Program-made: the position numbers and the translations under genes
Part shown: positions 1 through 13,995 of the stretch, piece by piece
Layout of the letters: each line of letters starts with the position of its first letter
Numbering within the stretch: the first letter of the stretch is position 1
Source: an uncultured Verrucomicrobiae bacterium
GTDB lineage: Bacteria > Verrucomicrobiota > Verrucomicrobiia > Methylacidiphilales > UBA1321
Length of the DNA: 13,995 bases
Direction of reading: 5' to 3'
NCBI GenBank assembly: GCA_963743595.1
Contig: CAVURW010000209.1
Coordinates: 1 to 13,995, forward strand
Notes under the pieces: model-generated
The model's database searches: none
Told to the model about the DNA's origin: nothing
The model's input: only the letters and a program-made list of their open reading frames with translations

Positions 1-110
1 ATGTTTTTGTTTAACCTATTCGTTCGGTTGGTCTTGCTAGTGGGCTCTTGGTTTCATAAGATATTTAGATGGTCATCCAAATGCCCCCATTTAACAATTG
101 CCCGAAAGAG

Positions 111-1436
111 CTACCTAGTTCGGTCGACTGACGAAACCATCTCTTCCTTCGAACGGAACAGGGAGGAGAACATCGGGTTGAGCACAAAGGTGTCGCCTTC
201 GGTCGCCCAACCTTGCCACTTTTGCCGAATCTCTTCGGCAGAATCCTTGGTGAGGTCCGGCACCACACAGGCTTTGTGATCCGAGAGCTCGGCGAGATCG
301 TAGACTCCCCAGCTGCTGCCATGGCCCGCTTTGTTTTTGTAACTCCACATCGTCCAACTCAGCCCCTCCTGGTTGTACGCATTGATCCCGAAATCCCAAG
401 CCTGAGCGCTGCCAAAGAAGTTAAACTCGCCGACAAACGCAGGCACCTTCCATTGGCTTTGCATCTCGTGGATGCCTTTGATGTCCCCGAGCGTCTGTGC
501 ATCGTTATCGGCTGTGTCCTTGGCTCCAAAATGATAGAAATGAAACGAGTAGACGACGTTGCGGTAACCACACTTTTGGGGGTCATTCAAGGAATGCCAA
601 TCCCACATCCCCTCCATGCAAATGATGTGGTCGGGATCGCTTGATCGTATTGCCGAGTAGATCTGCGCGTATTGAGCGCAAACGGCCTCGGAAGAGGGCT
701 CGGATAACCCTTTGGGAGCCGAGTTATTCGGTTCGTTTAAGAGATCGTACATCGCCACAGCGGGGTTGCCTCGATAATGCTCCGCGATGTGCTTCCAAAT
801 CGCGGCCGTCTCGCTCTTCCAGTGATCCTGTTTCCAGTAACCGGTCGAGGAGCCGTCTTGATTCGCAAGGGCGGGTAGGAACGCGTGAAAATCGACAATC
901 GTGTAGATCCCCTGCTTCCAGGCGTTCTCGATCAGCCAATCCATTTTCTTAAAACCGTCCGGGCGAAACGTGCCCGCTTCGGTCATCAGCGTGTCATAGG
1001 CAAACGTGAGCCGCACTGCGTTCATCCCGAGGTTCTTAATGTTATCGAGATCGTGGAGATTGAACCACGCGTCCTCGTAGGTACTGACTAGGTTCTCCGC
1101 ATCGGTGGAGCCGAACCGGTTTTCAAGCAAATGCCGCACCTCGTAATCGTAGCCGTTGTGGCCGGGGTTTGCGTCCCGCAACGTGCCTGAAGAATCCATC
1201 GGACACATCCAGTCTTGCCACTCCAGCCAGCCGCCCACATTCACCCCTCTGAGTTGCACCACTCTACCAGCACCGTGCCCGTCTCGAATCTGGACGCCGT
1301 TCGCGGCAAGAAACGCGCTGTCTTGCGCTGCTGCCGAAACCAACCCAAACGCCAAGATGAATACGACACCTTCCAAGAACTTGCAGAACTTCTGAACCAT
1401 ATGCAAAAGTGTACGGCTCCCTTCTTCAGAGCGCAT
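111..1436 (-). CDS. Secreted glycoside hydrolase family 5 protein (cellulase / glucan beta-glucosidase-like)
   Basis: 441-aa ORF. GH5 signature residues are readable: acid/base motif 'LLNEPNN', nucleophile motif 'FVGEFNFFG', and N-terminal 'RGVNVGGWLEWQDWM' resembling the GH5 'GGWLVLEPW' start of the barrel. A signal-peptide-like segment 'MVQKFCKFLEGVVFILAFGLVSAAAQ' begins at the second Met, so the ATG at 1400 is a plausible true start. No SD at either start. Confidence 0.85.
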   Translation of the reverse strand: MRSEEGSRTLLHMVQKFCKFLEGVVFILAFGLVSAAAQDSAFLAANGVQIRDGHGAGRVVQLRGVNVGGWLEWQDWMCPMDSSGTLRDANPGHNGYDYEVRHLLENRFGSTDAENLVSTYEDAWFNLHDLDNIKNLGMNAVRLTFAYDTLMTEAGTFRPDGFKKMDWLIENAWKQGIYTIVDFHAFLPALANQDGSSTGYWKQDHWKSETAAIWKHIAEHYRGNPAVAMYDLLNEPNNSAPKGLSEPSSEAVCAQYAQIYSAIRSSDPDHIICMEGMWDWHSLNDPQKCGYRNVVYSFHFYHFGAKDTADNDAQTLGDIKGIHEMQSQWKVPAFVGEFNFFGSAQAWDFGINAYNQEGLSWTMWSYKNKAGHGSSWGVYDLAELSDHKACVVPDLTKDSAEEIRQKWQGWATEGDTFVLNPMFSSLFRSKEEMVSSVDRTR

Positions 1437-1529
1437 CCCTCTTTGGAGTAAGATTTTCGGTTAATCCACGAACGCGCTTGGGAACCTGAAACTCCTGCCG
1501 TGGTTCGATTAGGTGATTGGGACACGAAG

Positions 1530-1973
1530 TTAATCGATGTCCGACTCAACAAGCATCCCAAGCAAAATTAGGGACTCTTGCCAGCCGAGATAGCACGACT
1601 CGCGAGGAATTGCTTCAGGCACTCCGTGTTGGGTTACGGTCATTTCGGTGCCACAGGCGACCTGCTTCAGTGTGACCGTCACTTCCATAACGCCCGGAAG
1701 GTTCGCGTCATCGAACCAATTGCTGTAGCGAATTCGCTCATACGGCACCAGTTCCAGGTACTCCCCGCCAAACGAGTGTCCTTGTCCTGTTCTAAAATTT
1801 GTGAACGACATCCTAAACTTGCCACCGACTTTGCCGTCCATTTCGTGCACCTTGCCGATAAATCCATTTGGCGGAAGCCACTTCGAGAGCGCATCGGCAT
1901 CGAGGAAGGCCTTGTAGACGTGCTCCGGCAATGTGCAGAGCACTCGGTGAAGTTGAATCGTGTGCGTACCCAT
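1530..1973 (-). CDS. SRPBCC superfamily protein, Activator-of-Hsp90-ATPase-homolog-1 (AHSA1/YndB)-like
   Basis: 147-aa ORF. Sequence pattern 'LHRVLCTLPEHVYKAFLDADALSKWLPP...GGKFRMSF...GEYLELVPYERIRYSNWFDD...VTVTL...GTEMTVTQHGVPE' matches the conserved layout of the bacterial AHSA1 domain (PF08327-like), which also fits the ~150-aa size. Confidence 0.8.
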   Translation of the reverse strand: MGTHTIQLHRVLCTLPEHVYKAFLDADALSKWLPPNGFIGKVHEMDGKVGGKFRMSFTNFRTGQGHSFGGEYLELVPYERIRYSNWFDDANLPGVMEVTVTLKQVACGTEMTVTQHGVPEAIPRESCYLGWQESLILLGMLVESDID

Positions 1974-2059
1974 AATTTACCCATGATCTACGCACAGAAC
2001 GGAGCTCGGCAACAAGCCAACTTTCCACCGCATGCACTGGCAAAGCCCGATAACCGGAA

Positions 2060-3625
2060 CTATTCCCACTCGATCGTCGCGGGTGGCTTAGAAGAAATGT
2101 CGTAGACGACGCGGTTGATGCCGCTGACTTCATTGGTGATTCGCGTCGCGATTTTCTCCAGCACAGCGTAATCGATCTTCACCCAATCGGCGGTCATTCC
2201 GTCCTGGCTCTCGACGATACGCACAGCGCAGGTCAATGCGTATGTTCGCTCGTCGCCTTGAACGCCTACACTGCGTACGGGTAATAGCACAGCGAATGCC
2301 TGCCACACCTTTTCGTACCAACCGCTTGCTTTCATTTCCTGGATCACGATGGCGTCGGCTTCACGCAAGATCGCTGTCTCCGCCGCGGAGACGGGGCCGA
2401 GAATGCGGACTGCAAGCCCAGGGCCAGGGAACGGATGACGCCACACCATCTCCTTCGGCAGGCCGAGCGTCTCGCCTAAATGCCGGACCTCGTCCTTAAA
2501 GAGTTGCCGAAGCGGTTCCACGAGCTTGAAGGCCATGTCTTCCGGCAGACCACCGACATTGTGATGGCTTTTGATCACAGAAGCCGGGTTATCACCGATG
2601 GCCACGCTCTCGATCACGTCAGGGTAGAGCGTGCCTTGCGCCAGGTACTTGGCATCGCCCACCTTTTTGGTCGCTTCGGAGAACTCTTCAATAAATTGGC
2701 GACCGATGATCTTCCGTTTCTGCTCGGGATCGCTAATGCCCGCTAACTTGGCAAGGAACCGCTCCCCTGCATCCACTGTGTGCAAATTCAGCTTCATGTT
2801 CCGCCCAAACACCTCTTCGACGCTCTGACGCTCGCCTTTTCGGAGCAGGCCGTTATCGACAAAAATACATTGGAGCTGCTCGCCGATCGCCTGGTGTAAA
2901 AGCGCGGCTGCCACACTGGAATCGACGCCGCCACTGAGGCCGAGAATGACTCGATCCGACCCGACTTGTTCCTTGATCGCTGCGCAGCTCGATTCGATGA
3001 AGCTATCCATCGTCCACGTCGGTTGCGCGCCGCATATGTTGTAGACGAAGTTCGCCAAGATCTGCAGGCCCTTCGGCGTGTGCGCAACTTCTGGGTGAAA
3101 CTGCAGGCCGTAGAGACGTCGGGCTGAGTCTTCGATCACCGAGAACGGCGAGTTACTGGAATGTGCAACCACTCGGAAGCCTGGCGGCAACGTCTTCAAC
3201 GCGTCGCCGTGGCTGTTCCAAATCTCCAGCTCATTCGGGAGATCGCCCAGCAGCAAGGATCGCATCTCCGGGGCCACGTCGGGCTTGGTATCCTCACGCA
3301 GCATGTAACCGCGCCCATACTCCCGGCGATCACTGCGCGCGACATCGCCACCGAGCATCGCGCCGAAAAGCTGCATGCCGTAACAGACCCCTAAAATCGG
3401 TAGGCCAGCCTCGAAAATGGCGGGGTCGGGCCGGGGCGCTTTCGGCGCGTAAACGCTGGCAGGACCGCCGCTGAAAATAATCCCGGCTGGTTCGCGGCTC
3501 TTGAGTTCGCTGATGGGCGTATCGTAACGCAAGATTTCGGAGTAAACTTTGAGTTGGCGAATGCGTCGGGCAATGACTTGGGTGTACTGCGAACCGAAAT
3601 CGAGAATGAAGATTTTGTCTGCCAT
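2060..3625 (-). CDS. guaA: GMP synthase (glutamine-hydrolysing)
   Basis: 521-aa ORF. The N-terminal class-I glutamine amidotransferase domain starts with the canonical '[20 protein letters not shown]'. The PP-loop ATP pyrophosphatase motif 'SGGVDSSV' is present. The C-terminal dimerisation domain ends in 'PPATIEWE', typical of GuaA. Confidence 0.97.
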
Positions 3626-3697
3626 AAAAAAGGAAGCGGGGATGCTAATACAGAAGCGAAGTTTATGCCACCTCGAACGCTCCTTTCTTTACAGTTT

Positions 3698-5509
3698 CTA
3701 TTTGTTTCCGGGGGTGGGGGAGACGGGCTTTGACGGGGCGCTCTCCTCTAGATCGTCGTAGGCCGCATCGGTAAAGTGCCGTCGATATTTCTCCGGAATG
3801 AGCGGGGTCAGATCTATCGCCGTGCCTTCAATGGGATCGACCAAAGAAATTCGCAAGGGATTCATGTGCTCCAGAACGACGAGACGGAGTTTAAGCGATT
3901 TCTGATGCATCTTCGCAATCAAATAGGGCACCTGCTCCGTGGTGTACGCGCCGTAACCCCAAAACGGCGTGCATTCCAGCGGCGTTTTTTTGATCGGTGC
4001 GGTGGGCGAGTAACCGGTTGCATTTTTCACCTGAATGAGACCCGCGAAGTTTGCGGTGCCGAGCAGACAGAAGGGCACCTGATGACTTGCTTGATTTTCT
4101 GTAGGGAGCAGTCGGTCGATAATCGGGACGATCATTTCGCCGGGCTTCAGGTACTTACGCACCTCTGCCCAGTAGGTGTAGACCTGCCCTGACATGACGA
4201 GATCACGATCTTCCCGGGAATGATTGATCGCAGGGACGGGAGCATACGGTAGGGGCGCGAGGAAGACGATCGCGCCGAACCGGAGCATCGTCATTCGGAA
4301 ATTGCGGGAGAATCCGGGCCGACGCGTCACTAGGAAAAGATGGAAAAAGAACTCGAATTGCATGATTTCGCGGAACGGCCAGCGGAAGCTGTTTAGGAGC
4401 GGCAGATGCGACATCACTTCCGAAATCCAAAACGGGCGCGAGATGAAAATGACCAGCGTGGCGAGGATAAAGACCAGGAGTTGCTCGAATTTGCTGAATC
4501 GTCGGAAGCTCAGCAGTGCCGGGGCGATACACCATGATGCGGCGCACCCCAGGTAACTTTCTACAGGAAGCACATCCATGTGCTTGGCGGTCGGGTCGTT
4601 AAAAATATGAAGCGAGGTCCAGCCTCCTGCAAAAAGGGAGACCGGGAAGTAAGCAAGCGGCATCGCCAGGCCGGAAATCGACCGAGGATCCAATCCGGAG
4701 GAACGCGTGCTCGCGTAGTATCCAGCAACCATATCGACAAGCAGAGGCGAAATCAGAACGACCGAGAGGATCGAGCCCAGACCCCAGATCAGCAGTGGAC
4801 GGATCGACTGCGATTGCGAGGCGTAGGTCACCGTAAAAAGCGAAAGAATGAGGCCCGTGGAGATGGTCATTAACGGGTGGCCGCCCAGAATTTGATGGAT
4901 CTGAAAGAGTGCCACCAAGCTGATTCCCGTGCGGAGCGACGGCGATAGAATCGCCAGCACCAACCACGGCACGGCGCTGTGATTATTGAGAAAGATATTC
5001 CAGCTGGCGGTGACATTCAGAACATAAAGATTGAAGTTAAAGCTAAGCGCATAAAAGAGGATCATGTTGTCGTGGATGCTCAACGAATACTTCTTCTTCA
5101 GAAACCGGGAAACCGCGACGAACCCCAGCATGGCAATTTGCAGGTTCAAAAAAGCGACGATATCGAACGAGTAGATGAGCAGCCCGAAATTTGAGAGGTA
5201 GGCCACCAGGAAAATGAACGGGTGCCAGTTAAACAATCCAGGATCGGCCAGCAGATTATAATTTCCGCCGAAGAGGTAGTCGGAGATGAACGGCGAGTGC
5301 CCCTCGCCCAGGTGCCGCCCGATTTCCGCGATGATCCCGAGACCGCCCGTTAACGTGTCGTCCGTCAGGAAGTAGCAGGGCCGCCAGATTTGAAGGAGAA
5401 TGAAGCCCAGCGTGTTGAGAATCGCAGCGCGTATGTAGATGTTTTTGGGCCAGAGAAACTTCAGCAACTGCATAGCGCAGGAGAGTACCGGAACGGGTCC
5501 GGTTGTCAA
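3698..5509 (-). CDS. Polytopic integral membrane protein with C-terminal soluble domain; possible GT-C-fold glycosyltransferase (ArnT/PMT/YfhO-like)
   Basis: 603-aa ORF with more than 10 hydrophobic helical segments over the first ~430 aa, followed by a ~170-aa hydrophilic C-terminal domain. The first extracytoplasmic loop after TM1 contains an acidic 'FLTDDT' motif, reminiscent of the DD/DE motif of GT-C glycosyltransferases. The functional call is tentative. An alternative start at the Met of 'MQLLKF' (coordinate 5473) is possible. Confidence 0.75.
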   Translation of the reverse strand: MTTGPVPVLSCAMQLLKFLWPKNIYIRAAILNTLGFILLQIWRPCYFLTDDTLTGGLGIIAEIGRHLGEGHSPFISDYLFGGNYNLLADPGLFNWHPFIFLVAYLSNFGLLIYSFDIVAFLNLQIAMLGFVAVSRFLKKKYSLSIHDNMILFYALSFNFNLYVLNVTASWNIFLNNHSAVPWLVLAILSPSLRTGISLVALFQIHQILGGHPLMTISTGLILSLFTVTYASQSQSIRPLLIWGLGSILSVVLISPLLVDMVAGYYASTRSSGLDPRSISGLAMPLAYFPVSLFAGGWTSLHIFNDPTAKHMDVLPVESYLGCAASWCIAPALLSFRRFSKFEQLLVFILATLVIFISRPFWISEVMSHLPLLNSFRWPFREIMQFEFFFHLFLVTRRPGFSRNFRMTMLRFGAIVFLAPLPYAPVPAINHSREDRDLVMSGQVYTYWAEVRKYLKPGEMIVPIIDRLLPTENQASHQVPFCLLGTANFAGLIQVKNATGYSPTAPIKKTPLECTPFWGYGAYTTEQVPYLIAKMHQKSLKLRLVVLEHMNPLRISLVDPIEGTAIDLTPLIPEKYRRHFTDAAYDDLEESAPSKPVSPTPGNK

Positions 5510-5561
5510 AACCGGGGGCGATTGTCGTTCGTGATAAACCTGTTAGCGTGATTAGACTCTT

Positions 5562-6020
5562 ATGTTTGATCACAAGATCGTTATGGCCCAAATCCAGTTA
5601 GATCGCACCATGGAGTACGTCTCAATCATGACCCTGCTTCCTACGGAGCAACGTCGTCAGATGATGGTTCGAATTGGTCTGGCGATTGACAAGATGGCCA
5701 CGCTGAACCGAGAGGATTTTGGAGACAGTCCTTTTATCGAACAACGCCTTCTGGAATTTCGGTCAGCATGCGAATCGGTTTCCAATCTCTCTTCAACGGG
5801 TAGAGTTTTAGACGGGAAAGAACCCTGTCCAGTTTGCTGCTCGCCCATAAAAAAACCGGGGGCGACTCCCTTAGAAATATTTTATTCCACGAATTACTAT
5901 TGCCCCGAGTGTATTAGGCCGATCGAGGAGGCCAGTGCAAGACTGAATGCTGCTGAGGGCTTTAACGAGGCTGCTTACCTGGCATTTAGAGTAACCTTGA
6001 CCAAGAAACGCCCATCCTGA
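5562..6020 (+). CDS. Small hypothetical protein with C-terminal CxxC-x18-CxxC zinc-ribbon (paralog A)
   Basis: 152-aa ORF. It is paralogous to the next ORF at roughly 30-35% identity by eye. Shared blocks include 'MTLLPTEQRRQM' vs 'MTLLPTDQRQQL', '...LNRE.FG' vs '...LNRCFFG', and 'LDGKEPCPVCCS...PGA...CPEC' vs 'LDGNAECSVCGT...PGA...CSPC'. The amino-acid-level conservation despite DNA divergence supports real coding. Confidence 0.65.
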   Translation: MFDHKIVMAQIQLDRTMEYVSIMTLLPTEQRRQMMVRIGLAIDKMATLNREDFGDSPFIEQRLLEFRSACESVSNLSSTGRVLDGKEPCPVCCSPIKKPGATPLEIFYSTNYYCPECIRPIEEASARLNAAEGFNEAAYLAFRVTLTKKRPS

Positions 6021-6022
6021 TT

Positions 6023-6433
6023 ATGCTCGATCTCAACCACCCGCAGACCAAGTGGATTTTTCGTGTCTCTCATGAAAAGGATGCGATTCACGAATTGACG
6101 CAAATGATGACCTTACTGCCGACAGACCAACGGCAACAACTGCTGGAACGTGTGCTCATCCACATCGAACGAATTCGGGAGCTAAACCGTTGTTTCTTCG
6201 GAGGTAAGTCAGATAACGAAGGAGCCATCGTGGAGCTGGAGAAGGCCTGTCGGAAACTCGCCAGCCTACCCTCGCAGAAAAGTTTTCTGGATGGCAACGC
6301 GGAGTGCTCCGTTTGCGGAACGATGATCGAGCCCCCCGGTGCCTACAACATTGTCCTTTGTTCTCCCTGCTGGCAGGGTTCATTATACGCTCTGGAATCC
6401 GTTGGAAGTCATTTTGGAACGAACGTCATCTGA
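6023..6433 (+). CDS. Small hypothetical protein with C-terminal CxxC-x15-CxxC zinc-ribbon (paralog B)
   Basis: 136-aa ORF starting 2 nt after the stop of paralog A (TGA-tt-ATG). Same architecture as paralog A: a helical N-terminal half carrying the 'MTLLPTDQRQQ' block, then a four-Cys zinc ribbon. A hairpin 'ccgtgt-aaatcc-acacgg' lies immediately after its stop (6434-6451). Confidence 0.65.
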   Translation: MLDLNHPQTKWIFRVSHEKDAIHELTQMMTLLPTDQRQQLLERVLIHIERIRELNRCFFGGKSDNEGAIVELEKACRKLASLPSQKSFLDGNAECSVCGTMIEPPGAYNIVLCSPCWQGSLYALESVGSHFGTNVI

Positions 6434-6470
6434 CCGTGTAAATCCACACGGCTGCTTCAGCCCCGTAACG

Positions 6471-6505
6471 AAAAAGGGTGCGTGACCGTTTCCAGCCACG
6501 CACCC
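6471..6505 (-). terminator. Rho-independent terminator for the flotillin-like gene (minus strand)
   Basis: A 9-bp GC-rich stem (gggtgcgtg 6476-6484 / cacgcaccc 6497-6505) with a 12-nt loop. On the minus strand it is followed directly by the T-run read from 6475-6471 (UUUUUCGUU). It lies 20 nt downstream of the TAA stop at 6525-6527. Confidence 0.55.
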
Positions 6506-6524
6506 GATTTCTCATCCGACGACG

Positions 6525-8519
6525 TTACACCATTTGATTCGGGTCAGTCGGAACACCGGGGAGGATGACGCCTCCGTCTTCGCTCGCGGGTTCAGGCACG
6601 CTAGGCACGGTGGGCATGGCGGTCGTGGCTGTAATCACATCCCCGCTACCCACGCGATCTTTCAGCGTCGTGCCCAGAAGAGCCTCGAGCAAGCCGCCAC
6701 CTGCTGCACCGCCACCGCTGGTGACGGAGACGTCCGGTACGATGCGCACATTGCGTTCACCCACGATCTGCATGATTTGCAGTGCGGCGAAGGCTTGGCC
6801 TCCGAGTGCTTCCACACCGGCGCGATAGGCTTGCGCCTTGGCCAAACCGGTCGTGCGAATGGCTTCGGCTTGACCCAAGGCGCGGAGGCGAATGGCTTCC
6901 GATTCACCCTGCGCGGCCTTGACGTTGGCCTGAGCATTCAGCTCAGCGATCATCACGCCCTGCTCGCTGGCGACGACCTGTTGTTGAATGTTCGCGATGG
7001 AGGTCTCACGCACCAGCAACTGCCGTTGTTTCTGCGCGGCTTCCTGCATCTCGTAGGTCTCCTTCTCTTCCTCTGCGAGTTTACGATCCGTCTGCGTCTT
7101 CATCAGCGCTTCCGGAGGCGTGATATCGCCGATCAACGTATCGACCGCTTGCACGTTATACTCGCCGAGAGCCACGCGTATGAATTGGGCCGCTTCCGAC
7201 TGGCGCTCACTGCGGGCCCGTAAGAAATCGAGCACCGTGTAGTATTGCGCGGAGTTCCGGAAGTAGTTGCCGACGATCGGTTGCAGCACGTGATCGACAA
7301 GATTCTGCATCGAGCCGACACGGGAGATGACACGGGGAGCGTCCATGGCACCCACGTGGATGATCTGCGCGACGTCCAGGTTAAAGGCGAATCCATCGCG
7401 GGAACGCACAGTAATGCTGCTCAGTTTCGCATCGAGATTGTGCGCCTCCGATTGGCGAGCCCAGTTCAATACAATATTGGTGGTGGGCACGCGTTCTACA
7501 CGCATGATCTTCGGGTTGATGGGGTGCTTGCCGGGGTAGAGTGGCGAGACCCACACGCCCTTATGGCCGGGCTCCACCAGATCGCCGTGCAGGAATTCCT
7601 TCCCGGAGACGTCGATGTGCGCTTCCCCAACGAAGGAGATGACCACACCCACGTGACCGATGGGAATTTCCAGCATTTCCACCTGTTCCACTTGGACGAA
7701 CCAGGGGTTCAGATTCCACGTACCAGAGAGCAGCACCTGCTGTTGCAAACCACGTTGGCCGCCGTTGTTCAGGTAGGCCTGAGGATTCTGGAAGTTATCG
7801 TGATCCGAGATCATGGGGCCGGCGATTTCGCCAGCAGGAATCGGCTTTCCATCCATGGTGGTGACCACTCCCACGCGATTCGACGCCACCTCATACACGT
7901 AGAACTGTTCCGGCACCATGCCGAACTTGGCGGCAGAGGCGGAGGTAATGACGTTGAAGAGCGCCTGGTTGATCCTGTACGTACCTGCGGTGAGGATGCT
8001 GAGCTGGCGACCTTTTTCGCCACCATTCAGCAAGAACGCGCGGGCGTCCTGGAAGTTGTTACAATCGACGAATTTAGCCAGGATCCGGTCGGAAGGAATG
8101 GAGCAGCCATCGTTGGCAAGAACCAACGCAATTTCGCCGGCGGGCACTTCCACCAGAGGAGCCTTAAAGACCTCGTACATGAAGAACCAGTAGCCGAAAT
8201 GGATACCTGGCCCGAGCGTTTCAGCTTGGTAACCAGCCTCGCCATTGAGCGCGACGAGTTGGCCGGGCGGCAACGATTTGGCTGAGAATTTCTTCACGAC
8301 GACGCCGACCTGCCGCTCATGAATCCGTACAGCGCCCGTAACGAGCGGTAGGAAAATGAGGCAGACGATCAACACGACCACCACGGCGAAGAGGATGAGC
8401 ATCCACACGTGTGAGTACGAGGAGGAGTTGTCCTCGCTGGTGACCTGTGCAAGAGTAACTAACGGGTGATTCAGTGAGCCCAGGAGGCTACTGACCGACA
8501 TGGCAAGGGTGCCGTTCAT
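6525..8519 (-). CDS. Flotillin-like SPFH/Band-7 domain membrane protein (YqiK/FloT-like)
   Basis: 664-aa ORF. An N-terminal hydrophobic anchor 'WMLILFAVVVVLIVCLIFLPLV' is followed by a long SPFH-type region. The C-terminus is a Glu/Ala/Gln-rich coiled-coil 'flotillin' segment ('EAAQKQRQLLVRE...ELNAQANVKAAQGESEAIRLRALGQAEAIR...AKAQAYRAGVEALGG') and then a Gly/Ala/Pro/Thr low-complexity tail. Alternative starts exist at coordinates 8501 and 8402. The convergent terminator is annotated separately. Confidence 0.88.
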   Translation of the reverse strand: MNGTLAMSVSSLLGSLNHPLVTLAQVTSEDNSSSYSHVWMLILFAVVVVLIVCLIFLPLVTGAVRIHERQVGVVVKKFSAKSLPPGQLVALNGEAGYQAETLGPGIHFGYWFFMYEVFKAPLVEVPAGEIALVLANDGCSIPSDRILAKFVDCNNFQDARAFLLNGGEKGRQLSILTAGTYRINQALFNVITSASAAKFGMVPEQFYVYEVASNRVGVVTTMDGKPIPAGEIAGPMISDHDNFQNPQAYLNNGGQRGLQQQVLLSGTWNLNPWFVQVEQVEMLEIPIGHVGVVISFVGEAHIDVSGKEFLHGDLVEPGHKGVWVSPLYPGKHPINPKIMRVERVPTTNIVLNWARQSEAHNLDAKLSSITVRSRDGFAFNLDVAQIIHVGAMDAPRVISRVGSMQNLVDHVLQPIVGNYFRNSAQYYTVLDFLRARSERQSEAAQFIRVALGEYNVQAVDTLIGDITPPEALMKTQTDRKLAEEEKETYEMQEAAQKQRQLLVRETSIANIQQQVVASEQGVMIAELNAQANVKAAQGESEAIRLRALGQAEAIRTTGLAKAQAYRAGVEALGGQAFAALQIMQIVGERNVRIVPDVSVTSGGGAAGGGLLEALLGTTLKDRVGSGDVITATTAMPTVPSVPEPASEDGGVILPGVPTDPNQMV

Positions 8520-9064
8520 ATAGAATATACCGACGCTACAGTCTGCCCGCTAACCTAAGGAGGTCAGGCGAGCCGACATCTTTTCGAGCGAGGTGATCGT
8601 GAGGCGTATCGCGTGTCTCTCAGAGACTGCGGTGCACCACGGTTTTCGCCCTCCCACATGCCTACGGAGTTAGCTGACGGGCTGGATCTTGGAAGTGATC
8701 CTCTGGCGGTTTTTCCACCAGATTTGCCCCATCCTTTGGGCGGGTTTTGGATTGAGATTCACCGGGTGCTTGGCCGGGAAAAGTCAGGTCCGAAATGCTC
8801 AAAGGAGTTTGGTTCCCCCGCGCTCGATCTTGGAACAGGATCGACGCTTAGGCGGCTGACCTGACGAGTTCTACATGCAAACAAGGTACTGGAAGAGTTA
8901 CAAAAATGCAAGTTGACACGGCTCTCAAGCTGGTCGGGAAACGTGTGAGAACCGGGCGAGAGCAGGAGTGTACTTAATTAGATATACTAATATTAGAAGA
9001 TCTCGTCTGCCGCCCGCGCCAACCTGTTATCGACGAATCGCCCGCCTCCCGCTACGTTTTCCCC

Positions 9065-10195
9065 ATGGGCCCGCGCAGGATCGTTTGGTTTCTTTGGAGC
9101 ATCGCCGCCTTGGCGCTGATCATCTGGGCTCGCGAGAGCTTTTTTCGTGAGTCGCTCCTGGAGCTCCAGTGGCGTCGAACGGGAGTGCCCACAGCGGCAT
9201 TTGGCGGGCTTTCCATCGATAAAGAGGGGCAAGTAGCGCTCTCCTATAATAACCAGTTTTCCGTCTACGACATCAAATCGGCTCAATGGCAGACGGTTGC
9301 GACAACTATTCCAGCCGATTATGTTCCCCGCACGAATCTCTCGAATGGGTTGATTCTTTGCCTCAGAAACTCTTCCGGCTACACCTCGGTGACTTATGGC
9401 GGTGGTCGCTCGCTAGTCAGCGGCTCGATTGTGACGACAAGCATATCGACGACGATATCCGTGCCCTCCCTCTCGCCTGCACCGAAGACGCCTCAAATCT
9501 ACCTAATAGATGAGGACAAGAAAACGGGTAGTTACGCCAAGGGGCCTAACTACGACTTCTCCGGTAGCCCCTTTATTGCGCTCAAAGACGGACGGGTGCT
9601 TTTTATCGATTCTTCCAAGAACTGCAGCGTTTATGACCCGGTGGCTGGTACATGGACAGATGCACCGGGAACCGCTCTTGGGACCCCAATCCTCACGTTA
9701 ATGGAGGATGGACGCGTTTTCCTGATGACTGGAAGTGACGCTTCCATTTTCGATCCTAAAACGATGAAATGGAGCGCCGTTAGCCCACTACCAACCGCTA
9801 TGGGAATCGTTCGCGGGGGAGTGAGTCTTGCAGATGGGAAGGTCATGGCGCTAGGGGATCATGGCCGTTCCAATTACGATCCGCGCCCCAATTCGTGGGA
9901 TCCGGTCGCGCCCGGCCATTACTCGGATACACCGTATTGCGGACGCTTACGTTCAGGTCGGGTGGTTTATTTAGGACTGGAAACACGGCCCGGACTATTT
10001 GGGCCCGCTTCGGACATCTTGTGCAAATTGTTTGATGAAAAAAGCAAGCTGGATCAAGAGGTTCGCCTGCCTCCTGAAGTTCAATACCTCTACGGAGCGC
10101 TGATGCTACCCAACGGTAAATTTATGGTGATGGGAATAAGCCAATCCTCAAATCCATGCTGTTGGTTAGTCGACGAATTGCCAGCAGAGAAGTAG
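9065..10195 (+). CDS. Signal-anchored Kelch-repeat beta-propeller protein (paralog 1)
   Basis: 376-aa ORF with an N-terminal hydrophobic segment 'IVWFLWSIAALALIIW'. It shows recurring blade motifs of the Kelch type: 'LKDGRVLFID...YDPVAGTWTDAPG', 'LMEDGRVFLMTG...FDPKTMKWSAVSPLP', 'LADGKVMALGD...YDPRPNSWDPVAPG', 'LRSGRVVYLG'. A NanM-like mutarotase or another Kelch propeller is possible; function is unassigned. Confidence 0.8.
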   Translation: MGPRRIVWFLWSIAALALIIWARESFFRESLLELQWRRTGVPTAAFGGLSIDKEGQVALSYNNQFSVYDIKSAQWQTVATTIPADYVPRTNLSNGLILCLRNSSGYTSVTYGGGRSLVSGSIVTTSISTTISVPSLSPAPKTPQIYLIDEDKKTGSYAKGPNYDFSGSPFIALKDGRVLFIDSSKNCSVYDPVAGTWTDAPGTALGTPILTLMEDGRVFLMTGSDASIFDPKTMKWSAVSPLPTAMGIVRGGVSLADGKVMALGDHGRSNYDPRPNSWDPVAPGHYSDTPYCGRLRSGRVVYLGLETRPGLFGPASDILCKLFDEKSKLDQEVRLPPEVQYLYGALMLPNGKFMVMGISQSSNPCCWLVDELPAEK

Positions 10196-10205
10196 TGTAG
10201 CGTTC

Positions 10206-11375
10206 ATGAAACCGGGCTTGGCTACGCGACTAACACGAGATGCGATTCTCCTCGCCGTCGTTTTGTTGGGAGCCGTGCTCATCCGGTCCGCCCTCTTACC
10301 CGAGCAGATGAACATCGTCAAAACGGGCGACCTAAAAGCTCCCATGCTGGATGGTGCGTGGTTGCGTCTAGATGACGGGCGGTTCTTTGTTTTTGGTGCC
10401 ACCGCACCCCAAAGTCCGAATGAGACCTCGGAGAGTGGCACTGCGGAAATTTATGATCCGAAACGGGGCGAATGGTCGATGGTGCCCGGAAAGCTGAACA
10501 ACTTCCAGTTCGCCTCAGCGCTTTCCGGCGGCAGGGTGATTTGCGGCTTCTCAAATAAGACCGACGACTACTACCAGCTCTACAATACGACCGATAAGAA
10601 TTGGTCCAACATTCCCACGCCCCCCGGCAAGCTCGCCACGTACACGGCCCTGGATTGTCTTCAACTCAAATCGGGCGAGCTCCTCTTTGTCGGAGACTCC
10701 TCGGCAGTCGAGCAGATGGGCGAGAAAACGTGCGCGGAATATAACCTGAAGACGCGAACCTGGAAAAAAGTGGGCGATCTTATCCATATCCCCTCCCAAT
10801 CGTTCGGCATGATTTTGGAAGACAACGGAAAGGTGCTGAAATTTGGGATCGACGGCGAGGAAGAATTCGATCCCGCGAGCTACACGTGGAGCAGCAGCGT
10901 GCAAAGAGTTTCCATGCTGCCCGGACAACCCTTCATCCGCAGCCTAAACGAGAACGCCGAGACCGTCAGTTGGAACGTGAACACCCACGCGGAGCTTAAC
11001 CTCGGAATCCGCTCCTCCAATGCGCCCGCCACCATCTTAAAAAGTGGCCGCATCTGGGGCTGCGGCGGATTTATCCCGACCCACCAACTTCTCGTGCCGA
11101 TCCCGCTGATTTGGTTGAAAACCGAACCGGATGCCTTGCTCTCAGACAGTTGGTTGTTCGACCCGGCCACTAACCACGTTCAGTTCGGCTCGTTACTGCC
11201 AGAGCCCCGGTCCAATCACACCTTAATCACACTCGATGACGGACGCGTGGTCGTCTGCGGCGGCGTTTTGATGGCCGCCTTTAACCCGAACAAATCCAAC
11301 GACCCGATCAACCCGAGCGTCTTTAACACCGTTGCGACGAGAACCTGTTTTATCGTGAATCCCGAAGGTCAGTAG
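10206..11375 (+). CDS. Signal-anchored Kelch-repeat beta-propeller protein (paralog 2)
   Basis: 389-aa ORF that begins 10 nt after paralog 1 stops, consistent with an operon. It has an N-terminal hydrophobic segment 'ILLAVVLLGAVLI' and the same blade motifs: 'LDDGRFFVFG...YDPKRGEWSMVPG', 'LKSGELLFVGD...YNLKTRTWKKVGD', 'LEDNGKVLKFG...FDPASYTWS', 'LDDGRVVVCGG'. Confidence 0.8.
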   Translation: MKPGLATRLTRDAILLAVVLLGAVLIRSALLPEQMNIVKTGDLKAPMLDGAWLRLDDGRFFVFGATAPQSPNETSESGTAEIYDPKRGEWSMVPGKLNNFQFASALSGGRVICGFSNKTDDYYQLYNTTDKNWSNIPTPPGKLATYTALDCLQLKSGELLFVGDSSAVEQMGEKTCAEYNLKTRTWKKVGDLIHIPSQSFGMILEDNGKVLKFGIDGEEEFDPASYTWSSSVQRVSMLPGQPFIRSLNENAETVSWNVNTHAELNLGIRSSNAPATILKSGRIWGCGGFIPTHQLLVPIPLIWLKTEPDALLSDSWLFDPATNHVQFGSLLPEPRSNHTLITLDDGRVVVCGGVLMAAFNPNKSNDPINPSVFNTVATRTCFIVNPEGQ

Positions 11376-11381
11376 GCAACG

Positions 11382-12142
11382 GCAACGTGACGTTGCATCC
11401 AATAACCAGCGTGACGCTGGACCCTGTAGCCCTTTCGCTATCACGATGCCCCCTGTCTCTAGGCCCAGAGGCTAGCGTGACATTGGACCGAGTAGCGCTT
11501 TTCCTTTTCACGATGCCCTGTCTTTAGGCCCGGAGGCCAGCGTGACGCTGGACCCGGTAGCGATTTCGTTTTCACGATGCCCCCTGTCTTTAGGCCCGGA
11601 GGCCAGCGTGACGCTGGACCCGGTAGCGATTTTCCTTTTCACGATGCCCCCCTGTCTTTAGGCCCGGAGGCCAGCGTGACGCTGGACCCGGTAGCGATTT
11701 CGTTTTCACGATGCCCCCCCTGTCTTTAGGCCCGGAGGCCAGCGTGACGCTGGACCCGGTAGCGATTTCGTTTTCACGATGCCCCCCCTGTCTTTAGGCC
11801 CGGAGGCCAGCGTGACGCTGGACCCGGTAGCGATTTCGTTTTCACGATGCCCCCCTGTCCTTAGGCCCGGAGGCCAGCGTGACGCTGGACCCGGTAGCGA
11901 TTTCGTTTTCACGATGCCCCCCTGTCCTTAGGCCCGGAGGCCAGCGTGACGCTGGACCCGGTAGCGCTTTTCCTTTTCACGATGCCCCCCCCTGTCCTTA
12001 GGCCCGGAGGCCAGCGTGACGCTGGACCCGGTAGCGATTTCGCTTTCACGATGCCCCTGTCCTTAGGCCCGGAGGCCAGCGTGACGCTGGACCCGGTAGC
12101 GCTTTTCGTTTCCACGATGCCCCCTGTCTTTAGGCCCGGGGG
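11382..12142 (+). repeat. Tandem array of 11 head-to-tail copies of a 65-70-bp GC-rich unit (consensus ~CCAGCGTGACGCTGGACCCGGTAGCGATTTCGTTTTCACGATG(C)nTGTCTTTAGGCCCGGAGG), no spacers
   Basis: Direct reading: the hairpin core 'ccagcgtgacgctgg' recurs at 11406, 11472 (degenerate 'ctagcgtgacattgg'), 11537, 11603, 11671, 11739, 11807, 11874, 11941, 12011 and 12076. The periods are 66, 65, 66, 68, 68, 68, 67, 67, 70 and 65 bp. A degenerate half-unit 'gcaacgtgacgttgc' sits at 11387-11401, right after the Kelch-2 stop. The central units are identical and the edge units are degenerate. The poly-C tract per unit is 5,3,5,6,7,7,6,6,8,4,5 C's. The period is not a multiple of 3, so the array is non-coding. 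Confidence 0.95.
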
Positions 12143-12328
12143 TCGGCTTCAATGGTAGCCCAGCTCAAGGAGCGTAGCGACGCAGGGCTGGGTGTCATCA
12201 AACAAGCGTTTGCGGGCTGTAAGCTCGCGTCAAACCGTTTGATCGCGAACATGTCTTGAGCCCGCTTCGAATTTACACTTAATCTGTTAGCACTGAGGAC
12301 ATTGTCAGTTGGGCGATGAAGAAGATCG

Positions 12329-12838
12329 TTATTTGCCATCAGTTTTTCGATTTATAAATAGATCAACAACATCGATTGCATGTCCGATTTGGTGATCATC
12401 TTCGGTATCGCTTTCTTCTAAGACCCACCACAACCAGAGCTTTAAGGCGTTGAGTTCGTTTGCATCTAAACCCGAAAGCCGACTCGCAGATTCCATGAGA
12501 TCTTCGATTTTCTCGACGCGGTGCGCCAGGGACCAAAAGATGAAACTAACTATCGAGCTATCGGCTGCGTTTAGCCGCAACGTCGCTACCATTATCTTTG
12601 GAAGAAAATAACAAAATGCATCAGGTGTCAAAAAGCCTGATGCACCCCCTAAACGGTCGAGAGTTCGAATATCCACCACGCTCCAGTCGAGCGTGTCCAG
12701 CGCTATGATATCTGCCAAATCGGAATCAGAGATTTGTTTGGGTTGCGTCGGATCTTTGAAATAGAGGTGTTTAGGTCGAGGTCGGGCGACAAATGCCTTT
12801 TCGATTAGCGAAATCAATTCCCGCCTGTCACCGTTCAT
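12329..12838 (-). CDS. Hypothetical cytoplasmic protein, translationally coupled to the upstream degP/htrA-like gene
   Basis: 169-aa ORF with no signal peptide. Its ATG (12836-12838) overlaps the TAA stop of the upstream protease gene by one base (TAATG on the minus strand). It is noticeably lower in GC (~42-45% by spot counts) than its neighbours (~57%). No domain recognised by eye. Confidence 0.65.
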   Translation of the reverse strand: MNGDRRELISLIEKAFVARPRPKHLYFKDPTQPKQISDSDLADIIALDTLDWSVVDIRTLDRLGGASGFLTPDAFCYFLPKIMVATLRLNAADSSIVSFIFWSLAHRVEKIEDLMESASRLSGLDANELNALKLWLWWVLEESDTEDDHQIGHAIDVVDLFINRKTDGK

Positions 12839-13995
12839 TAATGCATCTTCGCCGCAGAGAGATTCACAAAACCGCCCGTGCCATCGTTGCCGTGGCTGAT
12901 CAGAAGCAAAACGCTTTCGCCCGGCTTTACGGTTTTCGCGAGGTCGTCAAAGTCCTTGGCGGTGGTGATGTCGTGGCCCGGACCGCGATTGACCCAGGCT
13001 TTTAAGATGAGGTCGCCGACTTGCACCTGGAGGTCTTTCGCCAGGCAATCATCGCTTAATGAAATGACGACCGCAGCGGGCTTTTTGTTCTCGGGATCGA
13101 TCTTGAATTTGTCCCGTGTTTTGTCGTTGAGATCATCCACCTTGATGCCCGAAACAACGGTTGCCTCGGTTGGCGTCGCTGGATGCTCGGCCGTCGGAAT
13201 CTGTTCCGGCTGACCCACACCACCCTTCGCGACCGCCTCCGTCAGTTGTCCGATTTTCACGCTGACGGTTGCTTGACGCCCATCACGAATGTAGCCGAGC
13301 GTGATCTGGTTCCCAATGGGGATTTGCGCGACCAACAACCGAAGTGCCGCTGGGCTGGTGACATGGTGACCGTCTACGGAAGTGATGAAATCGCCGGCGT
13401 GCAGTCCGGCATTTTGCGCGGGAGATCCATCCTCCACGGCATCGACCAGCGCCCCTTCATCCGTATCCAGACCCAATTGCTGGCGGACGTCATCCGACAA
13501 CTCTTTTTCATAGCGCACACCCAGGTAGCCGCGAACTAAGTAGCCATTCTTGATGAGGTCCACCACGGCGTACTTCGCGAGATTGCTCGGAATCGCAAAG
13601 CCGACGCCCATATTCACGCCGGTCGATGACGCGATCGCGGCGTTGATTCCCACCAGCTCGCCCTGACAATTCACCAGCGCTCCACCGGAATTGCCGGGGT
13701 TGATCGCCGCTGTCGTTTGAATGAAATCTTCATAGGACGACTCATTCAAATTCCGGCTCTTGGCACTGACAATTCCATTGCTGAAGGAATCGTTCAGGTT
13801 AAACGGATTCCCGGCGGCAAAGACCTGCTCGCCGATCTTGAGATTCTCAGAATCGCCCCATGGCAACGCGGGCAGTCCAGTGACATCGATTTTGATGACG
13901 GCCAAATCGACCGATTCATCCGAAGCGATGACCCGCGCCGAAAACTTGCGGTGATCGGTGAGCCGTACTTGAATCGATTCAGCTCCGGCCACGAC
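12838..13995 (-). CDS. DegP/HtrA-family periplasmic serine endoprotease with two PDZ domains (5' end beyond window; partial)
   Basis: The trypsin-like domain shows the catalytic Asp context 'DLAVIKID' and the catalytic Ser motif 'GNSGGALVN'. It is followed by two PDZ-like segments ('...GALVDAVEDGSPAQNAGLHAGDFITSVDG...' and '...AAVVISLSDDCLAKDLQVQVGDLILKAW...'). The ORF is open to the window edge, so the N-terminus including the catalytic His is expected upstream of 13995. Confidence 0.93.
   Translation of the reverse strand, partial: VVAGAESIQVRLTDHRKFSARVIASDESVDLAVIKIDVTGLPALPWGDSENLKIGEQVFAAGNPFNLNDSFSNGIVSAKSRNLNESSYEDFIQTTAAINPGNSGGALVNCQGELVGINAAIASSTGVNMGVGFAIPSNLAKYAVVDLIKNGYLVRGYLGVRYEKELSDDVRQQLGLDTDEGALVDAVEDGSPAQNAGLHAGDFITSVDGHHVTSPAALRLLVAQIPIGNQITLGYIRDGRQATVSVKIGQLTEAVAKGGVGQPEQIPTAEHPATPTEATVVSGIKVDDLNDKTRDKFKIDPENKKPAAVVISLSDDCLAKDLQVQVGDLILKAWVNRGPGHDITTAKDFDDLAKTVKPGESVLLLISHGNDGTGGFVNLSAAKMH

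Follow-up and report, generated by a model that had tools for sequence, protein, structure and literature searches.

Repetitive extragenic palindromic (REP) families have stems of 5 to 13 bp, loops of 2 to 20 nt and an unpaired tag, GTAG or CGTC; their stem subfamilies are linked by complementary changes, copies also occur within open reading frames (ORFs), and head-to-tail dimers are rare in the GTAG and CGTC superfamilies, in which head-to-head and tail-to-tail dimers dominate (Di Nocera et al., PMC3733652). Hairpins of such a kind are recognised by Y1/HUH enzymes (PMC3479197, PMC6006769). Here, we describe a tandem array of a short hairpin module that follows a pair of Kelch-repeat protein genes in a stretch of 13,995 nt from an uncultured Verrucomicrobiae bacterium (assembly GCA_963743595.1, contig CAVURW010000209.1, positions 1 to 13,995, which is the entire contig), hereafter called the window. 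Most plausibly, it represents an amplified selfish or structural repeat that appears REP-like, although its tag places it outside the catalogued GTAG and CGTC superfamilies. We put at roughly 55% the probability that a REP-like hairpin module and its flank have been amplified head to tail immediately downstream of the Kelch genes.

The array and its hairpin module

A single tandem array was identified at positions 11406-12139 with Tandem Repeats Finder (TRF), with a period of 68 nt, 11.0 copies, 92% matches and a score of 1172. A previous reading of the window from its letters only, here referred to as the sequence-only reading, had recognised the array, which is real, but placed it at 11531-12075, which is too narrow on both sides. 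The 11 units were 64 to 69 nt long when anchored on CACGATGCC, and the differences in length were mostly located to a poly-C tract (C3-C8) and a T/C patch. The 15-nt palindrome CCAGCGTGACGCTGG had 10 exact occurrences, as compared to 0.39 expected from shuffles (up to 3 mismatches allowed). A comparison of the units showed that those at the edges of the array have diverged and that the inner units are nearly identical. It was also noted that the poly-C run varied from 3 to 8 among units that were otherwise near-identical (11579-12059), which could represent either true slippage or a homopolymer error of a long-read assembly.

The core of the unit is a hairpin with its tail, the 19-mer CCAGCGTGACGCTGGACCC, which we refer to as the B module. 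Nine units contained the exact sequence CCGG-AGG-CCAGCG-TGA-CGCTGG-AC-CCGG, a 28-nt hairpin with a 4-bp and a 6-bp stem and a 3-nt loop, which was present in the minimum free energy fold with an energy of -15.9 kcal/mol as RNA and -11.1 kcal/mol as DNA, and with a pair probability of 0.96 in the nascent transcript. This hairpin had been assigned to every unit in the sequence-only reading; it is real in the nine units, but the module at 11406 is without the outer stem, the module at 11472 has decayed, and the last unit is truncated. The polarity of the array, which is in the sense orientation relative to the Kelch operon, was confirmed: on the plus strand the hairpin is followed by TAGCGA or TAGCGC and then by TTTCGTTTT, TTTTCCTTTT, TTTCGCTTT or TTTTCGTTTC, and on the minus strand there is no T run after the hairpin.

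The repeat region as a whole starts 6 nt beyond the stop codon of the second Kelch gene, with a module that we refer to as A-type, which has the architecture of the array hairpins, two compensatory changes of stem pairs and an ATCC tail. Compensatory changes between copies had been suggested as a check on a terminator or small-RNA reading, and they were found to preserve the pairing of the stem both in the window, where the modules at 11381 and 11406 can be compared, and across genomes.

No match to the exact 28-mer over the hairpin and its flank was found in the genome, metagenome and viral collections, and the 48 nt of the unit outside the B module matched nothing else; the full unit of 67-68 nt is private to this contig. 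Look-ups with the exact proteins retrieved only two short-read contigs, both from sample ERR11571142. The left one ends within the first unit of the array, and the right one ends close to the array, about 70 nt past it. Such contig breaks are the expected effect of a real long tandem repeat on de Bruijn assembly. A coding repeat was ruled out, since the period is not divisible by 3 and no ORF within the array exceeds 70 amino acids, as was an array of clustered regularly interspaced short palindromic repeats (CRISPR), since the whole 67-nt unit is repeated, including the intervening sequence, and the contig contains no cas genes.

Recurrence, anatomy and placement of the module in other genomes

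The first copies of the B module outside the window were found in loci anchored on the protease DegP, which were fetched through DegP and not through the motif. Exact copies were present in two distant metagenome-assembled genomes (MAGs) of Verrucomicrobia, three in locus L003, one of which was located directly after a stop codon, and one in locus L006. Altogether, L003 contained 5 copies in 21 kb, and a GCAACGTCACGTTGC copy was located beside a B copy in this locus, as in the window. The A-type module was identical in L003, L057 (4 copies in tandem), L145 and L181. The B 19-mer was further identified in at least 120 metagenome contigs of the Joint Genome Institute (JGI), from marine, sediment, peat, soil, termite-gut and rumen samples, and in 58 IMG/VR contigs, and the G+C content of the carrier loci ranged from 29% to 72%. 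One of the carriers, L114, is a Firmicutes sporulation locus (spoIIGA, sigE and sigG by NCBIfam equivalogs), in which hairpins of the family were located directly after the stop codons of sigE and sigG, in addition to two exact B copies; this locus rules out a REP that is confined to the Verrucomicrobia. Essentially no copies were present in plasmids (7.3 Gb) or in cultured phages (2.3 Gb), by which both a universal motif and vector contamination were ruled out, and a match in a coding region of an IncI1 plasmid resembles chance. Judging from these searches, the module is common, yet not universal, among uncultured members of at least two phyla and among their phages. It is dispersed in near-invariant form, either alone, in short direct arrays or at the 5' head of mosaic repeats.

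The recurring unit of about 19 to 23 nt consists of a purine, the 6-bp stem CCAGCG/CGCTGG, a TGA loop, an unpaired ACCC tail and, usually, AAT. The flanks were unrelated across 127 distinct copies, and the information content in the sequence logo was zero beyond position -1 and about +3. Position -1 was a purine in 88% of these copies, and the tail was followed by A (72%), by A or G, and by T. Several variants preserved the pairing, namely GCAACG/CGTTGC, CCAGCA/TGCTGG, GCAGCG/CGCTGC, CCAACG/CGTTGG, GAAGCG/CGCTTC and GCCCCG/CGGGGC. In a covariation test of 31 variants that were chosen by sequence similarity alone, the score was 0.261, as compared to 0.163 +/- 0.026 in shuffles, none of which (0 of 500) reached this value, and it was well above every slid control. 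Furthermore, the A[C/T]CC tail was kept in 11 of the 12 occurrences of five stems that are related to B by compensatory changes, and about 24 unrelated hairpins that were selected in the same manner, for a perfect stem and a TGA loop with the tail ignored, did not have it. Selection for pairing in the hairpin is supported by these comparisons, and because the paired positions covary while the loop and the tail stay fixed, the hairpin would be read by a protein as a folded single strand.

A signal of target-site duplication was not obtained at any offset. No neighbouring gene family was enriched among the 160 Pfam families in 122 neighbouring proteins, which represent ordinary and diverse genes. 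A second conserved hairpin after the tail was also ruled out, small GC hairpins being located upstream in 54 and downstream in 60 of 167 copies.

The copies were mostly intergenic, with 20 convergent, 26 co-directional and 9 divergent sites among those for which both neighbours were called. Some copies fell within ORFs, and these used three different frames and both strands. Examples were seen in the N-terminal extension of a prohead protease that resembles ClpP, encoded by a family of phages of the gut-Clostridia type, at the C-terminus of another phage protein and, in two cases, within a GemA-like ORF. The prohead protease copy was seen in ten related IMG/VR phages (L140, positions 5608-5700, and L148-L172), in which the module lies antisense in the N-terminal extension. 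The portal protein of the L140 group is about 75% identical to that of gut Clostridia phages of the 'Heliusvirales', and the module was identical even in a relative with diverged flanks; the GenBank relatives are without the module. A search for an empty site of the phage copy recovered filled sites only, and in related gut phages of the cultured type, which lack the motif, the junction differed by about 75 nt, with no clean insertion.

Short head-to-tail arrays were also identified elsewhere, with repeat lengths and copy numbers of 21 nt x2 (L086, abutting copies), 26 nt x3 (L072), 44 nt x2 (L088) and 142 nt x2 (L132), along with an A-type array of 40 nt x4.1 that continues up to the end of the contig in L057. 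In several lineages, B forms the 5' head of a longer repeat that is lineage-specific. This repeat has a body of about 75 nt in a marine group; in L125, it is a three-hairpin unit after the 3' end of a tRNA-Ser; and in L114, it is a 190-nt unit with a hairpin at each end. L114 also contains one inverted pair 132 nt apart. The array in the window, consisting of B and 48 private nt, fits the pattern of mosaic repeats that these lineages suggest.

Additional details were noted for some of the mosaics. In the marine family (L021, L024, L041, L054, L060, L061, L070, L117), the short motif CCACTAGGCG precedes the module and its complement CGCCTAGTGG follows about 150 nt downstream in some members, which suggests a mosaic like the bacterial interspersed mosaic elements (BIMEs). 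In L125 (409-560, 1900-1975, 2005-2075), the module and another two hairpins come after the 3' end of the tRNA-Ser. A second occurrence of about 80 nt, in which the final 17 nt of the tRNA are included, is located 1.4 kb downstream and resembles duplicates of an att site or a segmental repeat. The units of about 190 nt in L114 (1754-1931 and 2969-3150) follow the stop codons of sigE and sigG and have a conserved interior and different terminal hairpins, GCAGCG-TGA-CGCTGC and CCAGCG-TCA-CGCTGG in one and GCCCCG-TGT-CGGGGC and GCCCAG-GCA-CTGGGC in the other; they had no match in Rfam. In L003, a 33-nt inverted repeat (CCCTTCCACCCGATCCTTCGCTCTGCTCAGGATGA and its complement, 20367-20399 and 20550-20586) brackets a pair of modules, and is possibly another repeat family in which modules are nested.

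A probable REP-like repeat and the alternative explanations

The module resembles REPs and BIMEs in being a short GC-rich stem-loop with a conserved unpaired tag on one side and complementary stem variants, dispersed mainly between genes, often at 3' ends and sometimes in ORFs, with no target-site duplication. It also forms clusters in which the unit is reiterated in tandem with flanking DNA, and mosaics with other motifs. REPs are short palindromic stem-loops of 20 to 40 bp with complementary variants, and the module, a 15-nt hairpin plus tail with such variants, is of this kind, although very short, with a 6-bp stem and a 3-nt loop.

Several observations weigh against assigning the array to a REP-like family. 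The tag A[C/T]CC follows the stem on its 3' side (read as GGRT on the complementary strand) and is neither GTAG nor CGTC; a GTAG is present in the unit of the window (ACCCGGTAGCG), but it is not conserved elsewhere. The sequence of the module is absent from the REP catalogue and its supplements (PMC3733652), and its arrays are commonly head-to-tail, the arrangement that is rare there. Classic REPs are high-copy and lineage-specific, whereas here phyla and phages have an identical 19-mer in common, which is unusual among REPs, and the number of copies per genome looks low to moderate: long ascertained contigs among the metagenome contigs contained only about two extra exact copies per roughly 1 Mb, and no further exact copy was found in about 20 kb of the source genome outside the array. 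Moreover, no ORF for a REP-associated tyrosine transposase (RAYT) or another Y1 transposase was identified in 1.38 Mb of loci, although only 0-1 would be expected even if they were linked. Searches by tblastn with approximate RAYT and IS608 TnpA queries yielded chance matches only (a phage scaffold or protease-like ORF, and SecA). Finally, the abutment of stop codons and tRNA 3' ends, which is much commoner for sense than for antisense copies and is discussed below, could indicate a role at the RNA level instead.

If the array is a REP-like cluster, one module and about 48 nt of adjoining DNA would have been reiterated 10 to 11 times directly after the second Kelch stop codon, in a convergent intergenic region. 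A protein would recognise the folded single strand of the module by the shape of the stem along with the bases of the loop and the tail, for which HUH/Y1 enzymes such as RAYT or the TnpA of IS200/IS605 would offer the best precedent. The array may have grown by unequal recombination, by replication slippage between units or by repeated insertion beside an existing copy, each of which would fit the homogenised inner units and the decayed edge units. Transcripts that continue past the Kelch operon would form about 12 stable hairpins, which could stall exonucleases or the polymerase in the manner of REP and BIME clusters, as a side effect and not as canonical termination; locally, the array may act as a barrier at the 3' end of the transcript.

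Other mobile elements were also compared to the module. The ends of IS200/IS605 elements, which Y1 HUH TnpA recognises, and those of their non-autonomous derivatives, the palindrome-associated transposable elements (PATEs), are similar in that a hairpin and the adjacent single-stranded bases would be the unit of recognition, in that target-site duplications are missing and in that strand-specific placement is plausible. Unlike these, the module has no transposase or TnpB nearby, its units of 19 to 23 nt are without payload, and paired left and right ends were seen only in the 190-nt element of L114. The genes flanked by inverted copies encode deoxyhypusine synthase and SerB. A relation to TnpB and its omega-RNA, considered for the spacing of about 100 to 140 nt to the ends of antisense genes, was ruled out, the genes being housekeeping genes. 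Like Rickettsia palindromic elements (RPEs) and intragenic REPs, the module can be an in-frame palindrome in coding genes, here at the N-terminus of the phage prohead protease and in the GemA-like ORF, but RPEs are 100 to 150 bp long and restricted to a genus, whereas the module is about 20 nt long and widely distributed. Miniature inverted-repeat transposable elements were ruled out, since target-site duplications were missing at every offset and most copies are solitary, the inverted pair 132 nt apart in L114 being the one such case.

We tentatively suggest that R-CCAGCG-TGA-CGCTGG-ACCC-AAT (19 to 23 nt) could be an undescribed hairpin element that is disseminated horizontally, although the odds are against it. 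It would be common, with an invariant loop and tail, to the Verrucomicrobia, gut and rumen Clostridia, and their phages, prefer the exact ends of gene products (stop codons and the CCA ends of tRNAs), tolerate in-frame positions, and seed arrays and mosaics. The manner of spread that we infer could be that of a minimal mobile DNA served by a single-strand-specific enzyme, or the module could instead be a conserved nucleic-acid signal with a widely shared factor, both with the same reserve. Exact strings of the motif were not found in the searchable literature, and the module is present in neither Rfam nor the REP catalogue. The second position of the tail tracks the fourth pair of the stem, in that stems with G-C have ACCC and those with A-T (GCAACG, CCAACG) have ATCC; this resembles C+.G-C and T.A-T triples, with few independent events and one exception (L125:497). 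If the element is of this type, such base-triple-like covariation is possibly part of the fold that is recognised.

The array itself is a fairly ordinary object, but its module may be undescribed, unusually conserved and widely disseminated. If confirmed, the distribution would make it a tractable case for the spread of minimal palindromic repeats between lineages and for why such repeats gather exactly at stop codons and tRNA ends, as well as a useful marker by which assembly breaks could be spotted and phages assigned to their hosts where few members of a group are in culture.

The most serious alternative, to which we give perhaps one chance in five, is an element that acts at the 3' end of RNA, as a stabiliser, a protein-binding site or a modulator of translation or decay close to the stop codon, and that was amplified on the Kelch mRNA. 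The placement exactly at the ends of gene products would then be selected. Twelve sense copies were located 0 nt past the stop codon of ORFs of at least 150 codons, and 11 more such ORFs terminated at the loop TGA of a sense copy, as compared to 1 antisense copy within 3 nt of a stop codon. A stop trinucleotide was present at positions -3 to -1 in 33 of 168 copies (20%), against a background of 3.4%, and in 3 of the 14 tRNA genes in the loci the CCA of the module overlaps or abuts the 3' end in the same orientation. The first module in the window, 6 nt past the Kelch stop codon, conforms to this placement, and REPs near stop codons in E. coli are reported to affect translation and mRNA decay. 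However, the overall bias in orientation is weak, with 16 sense and 10 antisense copies between co-directional genes, and 9 copies are located in divergent regions. The copies inside ORFs, in three frames and on either strand, also argue against a role in RNA, as do the G-T and A-C mismatches of decayed copies, which showed no strand preference. The adjacency of sense copies only could also be explained by strand-specific insertion, or by tolerance where the TGA in frame 1 ends the ORF at once.

It is rather improbable that the array represents up to 11 back-to-back semi-canonical intrinsic terminators after the Kelch operon, as proposed in the sequence-only reading. In favour of terminators, each unit has a stable GC-rich hairpin, the T-rich patch is confined to the plus strand, the array follows the 3' end of an operon where the flanking genes converge, and a terminator pattern scan flagged 9 sites as compared to 2.5 expected. 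However, these 9 sites depend on another hairpin of 5 bp, CGCTG...TAGCG, which competes with the main stem and is the only one that touches the T patch (-4.0 kcal/mol, 0.8% of the ensemble). The spacer and the T patch can form only a weak AGCG-AUUU-CGUU hairpin. The dominant stem is separated from the T patch by 6 nt (UAGCGA), a gap that had been pointed out before, and the patch is the interrupted UUUCGUUUU, whereas intrinsic terminators have an uninterrupted U tract 0-2 nt from the base of the stem. Nor do related copies of the hairpin retain a U tract: a T-rich tract was located downstream in 6 of the 127 distinct copies (thus missing in 95%), and on the other strand in 8 of the 127. Because only 6 copies have such a tract downstream, the T patch is private to this array and outside the conserved element. 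It is furthermore the sequence of the module, and not its structure alone, that is conserved across distant genomes.

Folding of single units on both strands, another of the checks that had been proposed, gave unremarkable energies relative to shuffles (z of -0.91 and -0.22 for the plus strand, -0.82 and -0.62 for the minus strand), and longer stretches folded better than single units only through pairing between the palindromes of adjacent units. In the same contig, the Band_7 gene is directly followed by a canonical terminator (6476-6505, minus strand), with a 13-bp stem (GGGTGCGTGGCTG/CGGTCACGCACCC), a GAAA loop and TTTTT directly after the stem, and the organism is therefore seen to use textbook terminators.

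Tandem genes for small structured RNAs, either small regulatory RNAs (sRNAs) or ToxI-like antitoxin repeats processed to units of 67 nt, would account for the regular period of 67-68 nt with one stable hairpin per unit, and tandem arrays of antitoxin RNA repeats do exist in type III toxin-antitoxin systems. We nevertheless consider this very unlikely. None of the covariance models in Rfam 15 matched the array at the gathering threshold, the only matches with an E-value of 10 or less being chance matches to miRNA models (E about 5-7); no Rfam match adjoined the motif in 20 other loci; and no promoter-like site was found in the array by a pattern scan. The 19-nt module alone is conserved elsewhere, the other 48 nt being private, and the length of the poly-C tract differs between units. 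A type III toxin-antitoxin system was ruled out, since no toxin gene or anything else is encoded downstream on the plus strand, the neighbours being the convergent DUF6714 and DegP genes. The array as a row of intrinsic terminators or sRNA genes is not supported, which removes a tempting but wrong annotation of the window as 11 terminators or sRNA genes and leaves the break in the short-read assembly explained by the repeat.

Least likely is a row of duplex sites bound by a dimeric protein, as in iterons, centromeres or operators, a reading which the regularly spaced and perfect 7-1-7 palindrome CCAGCGT-G-ACGCTGG would suit, but against which stand the coexistence of palindromes related by compensatory changes in L003, L114 and the window, which fits pairing and not base-specific reading of a duplex, the single copies scattered beside unrelated genes, the asymmetric conserved tail, and the lack of partition or replication genes nearby.

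Genomic neighbourhood and additional features

The features of the array and its surroundings are listed in Table 1. The DUF6714-like and DegP/HtrA genes converge on the Kelch operon, and the array is therefore located between two 3' ends. No homologue of the second Kelch protein other than itself was identified at E<=1e-20 among 5.8 billion clustered proteins, and for this reason the source lineage is taken to be very poorly sampled. The closest relatives of DegP were 43% identical and belonged to Verrucomicrobia MAGs. With neither the Kelch nor the DegP protein as a guide could orthologous loci with a syntenic array be found for comparison.

Table 1. Coordinates of the array, its modules and the neighbouring genes in the window
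Feature	Position	Strand	Description
Kelch-repeat protein gene 1	9065..10195	+	376 amino acids; upstream operon partner; Pfam Kelch_6/Kelch_1/Kelch_3, ORF list
Kelch-repeat protein gene 2	10206..11375	+	389 amino acids; stop codon TAG at 11373-11375; Pfam Kelch matches
A-type module	11381..11399	+	GCAACG-TGA-CGTTGC-ATCC; begins 6 nt past Kelch stop codon
Whole tandem array	11406..12139	+	11 units, each a 19-nt B module and about 48 nt of co-amplified flank; TRF, unit table, repeat finding
First B module	11406..11424	+	CCAGCG-TGA-CGCTGG-ACCC, without outer CCGG stem; start of array
Decayed module	11472..11490	+	CTAGCG-TGA-CATTGG-ACCG (two G-T pairs, one C-A mismatch); second diverged unit
Nine homogeneous units	11530..12096	+	28-nt extended hairpin CCGGAGGCCAGCGTGACGCTGGACCCGG
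Hairpins of the nine units	11530-11557, 11596-11623, 11664-11691, 11732-11759, 11800-11827, 11867-11894, 11934-11961, 12004-12031, 12069-12096
Spacer and T-rich patch	11558..11572	+	TAGCGA and TTTCGTTTT; first of ten, once per unit with variants
Variable segment	11640..11659	+	CACGATGC(n)TGTCYTTAGG with variable poly-C (C3 to C8); chief source of variation in unit length
Truncated last unit	12113..12139	+	CACGATGCCCCCTGTCTTTAGGCCCGG..., passing into unique sequence
DUF6714-like gene	12329..12838	-	Convergent with Kelch operon; weak Pfam match, ORF list
DegP/HtrA protease gene	12838..13992	-	Partial in window, 539 amino acids in L002; Trypsin_2, PDZ
Band_7/SPFH (flotillin-like) gene	6525-8519	-	664 amino acids

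Two adjacent paralogous small ORFs were noted on the plus strand, at 5562-6020 (152 amino acids) and 6023-6433 (136 amino acids), which have MTLLPT(E/D)QR(R/Q)Q and CxxC...CxxC motifs in common. Only the second of the two was called in the Logan contig, where it has no Pfam match on record. A cyclic di-AMP riboswitch (Rfam RF00379, 56.1 bits, full length) was located at 8644-8864 on the minus strand, upstream of the Band_7 gene.

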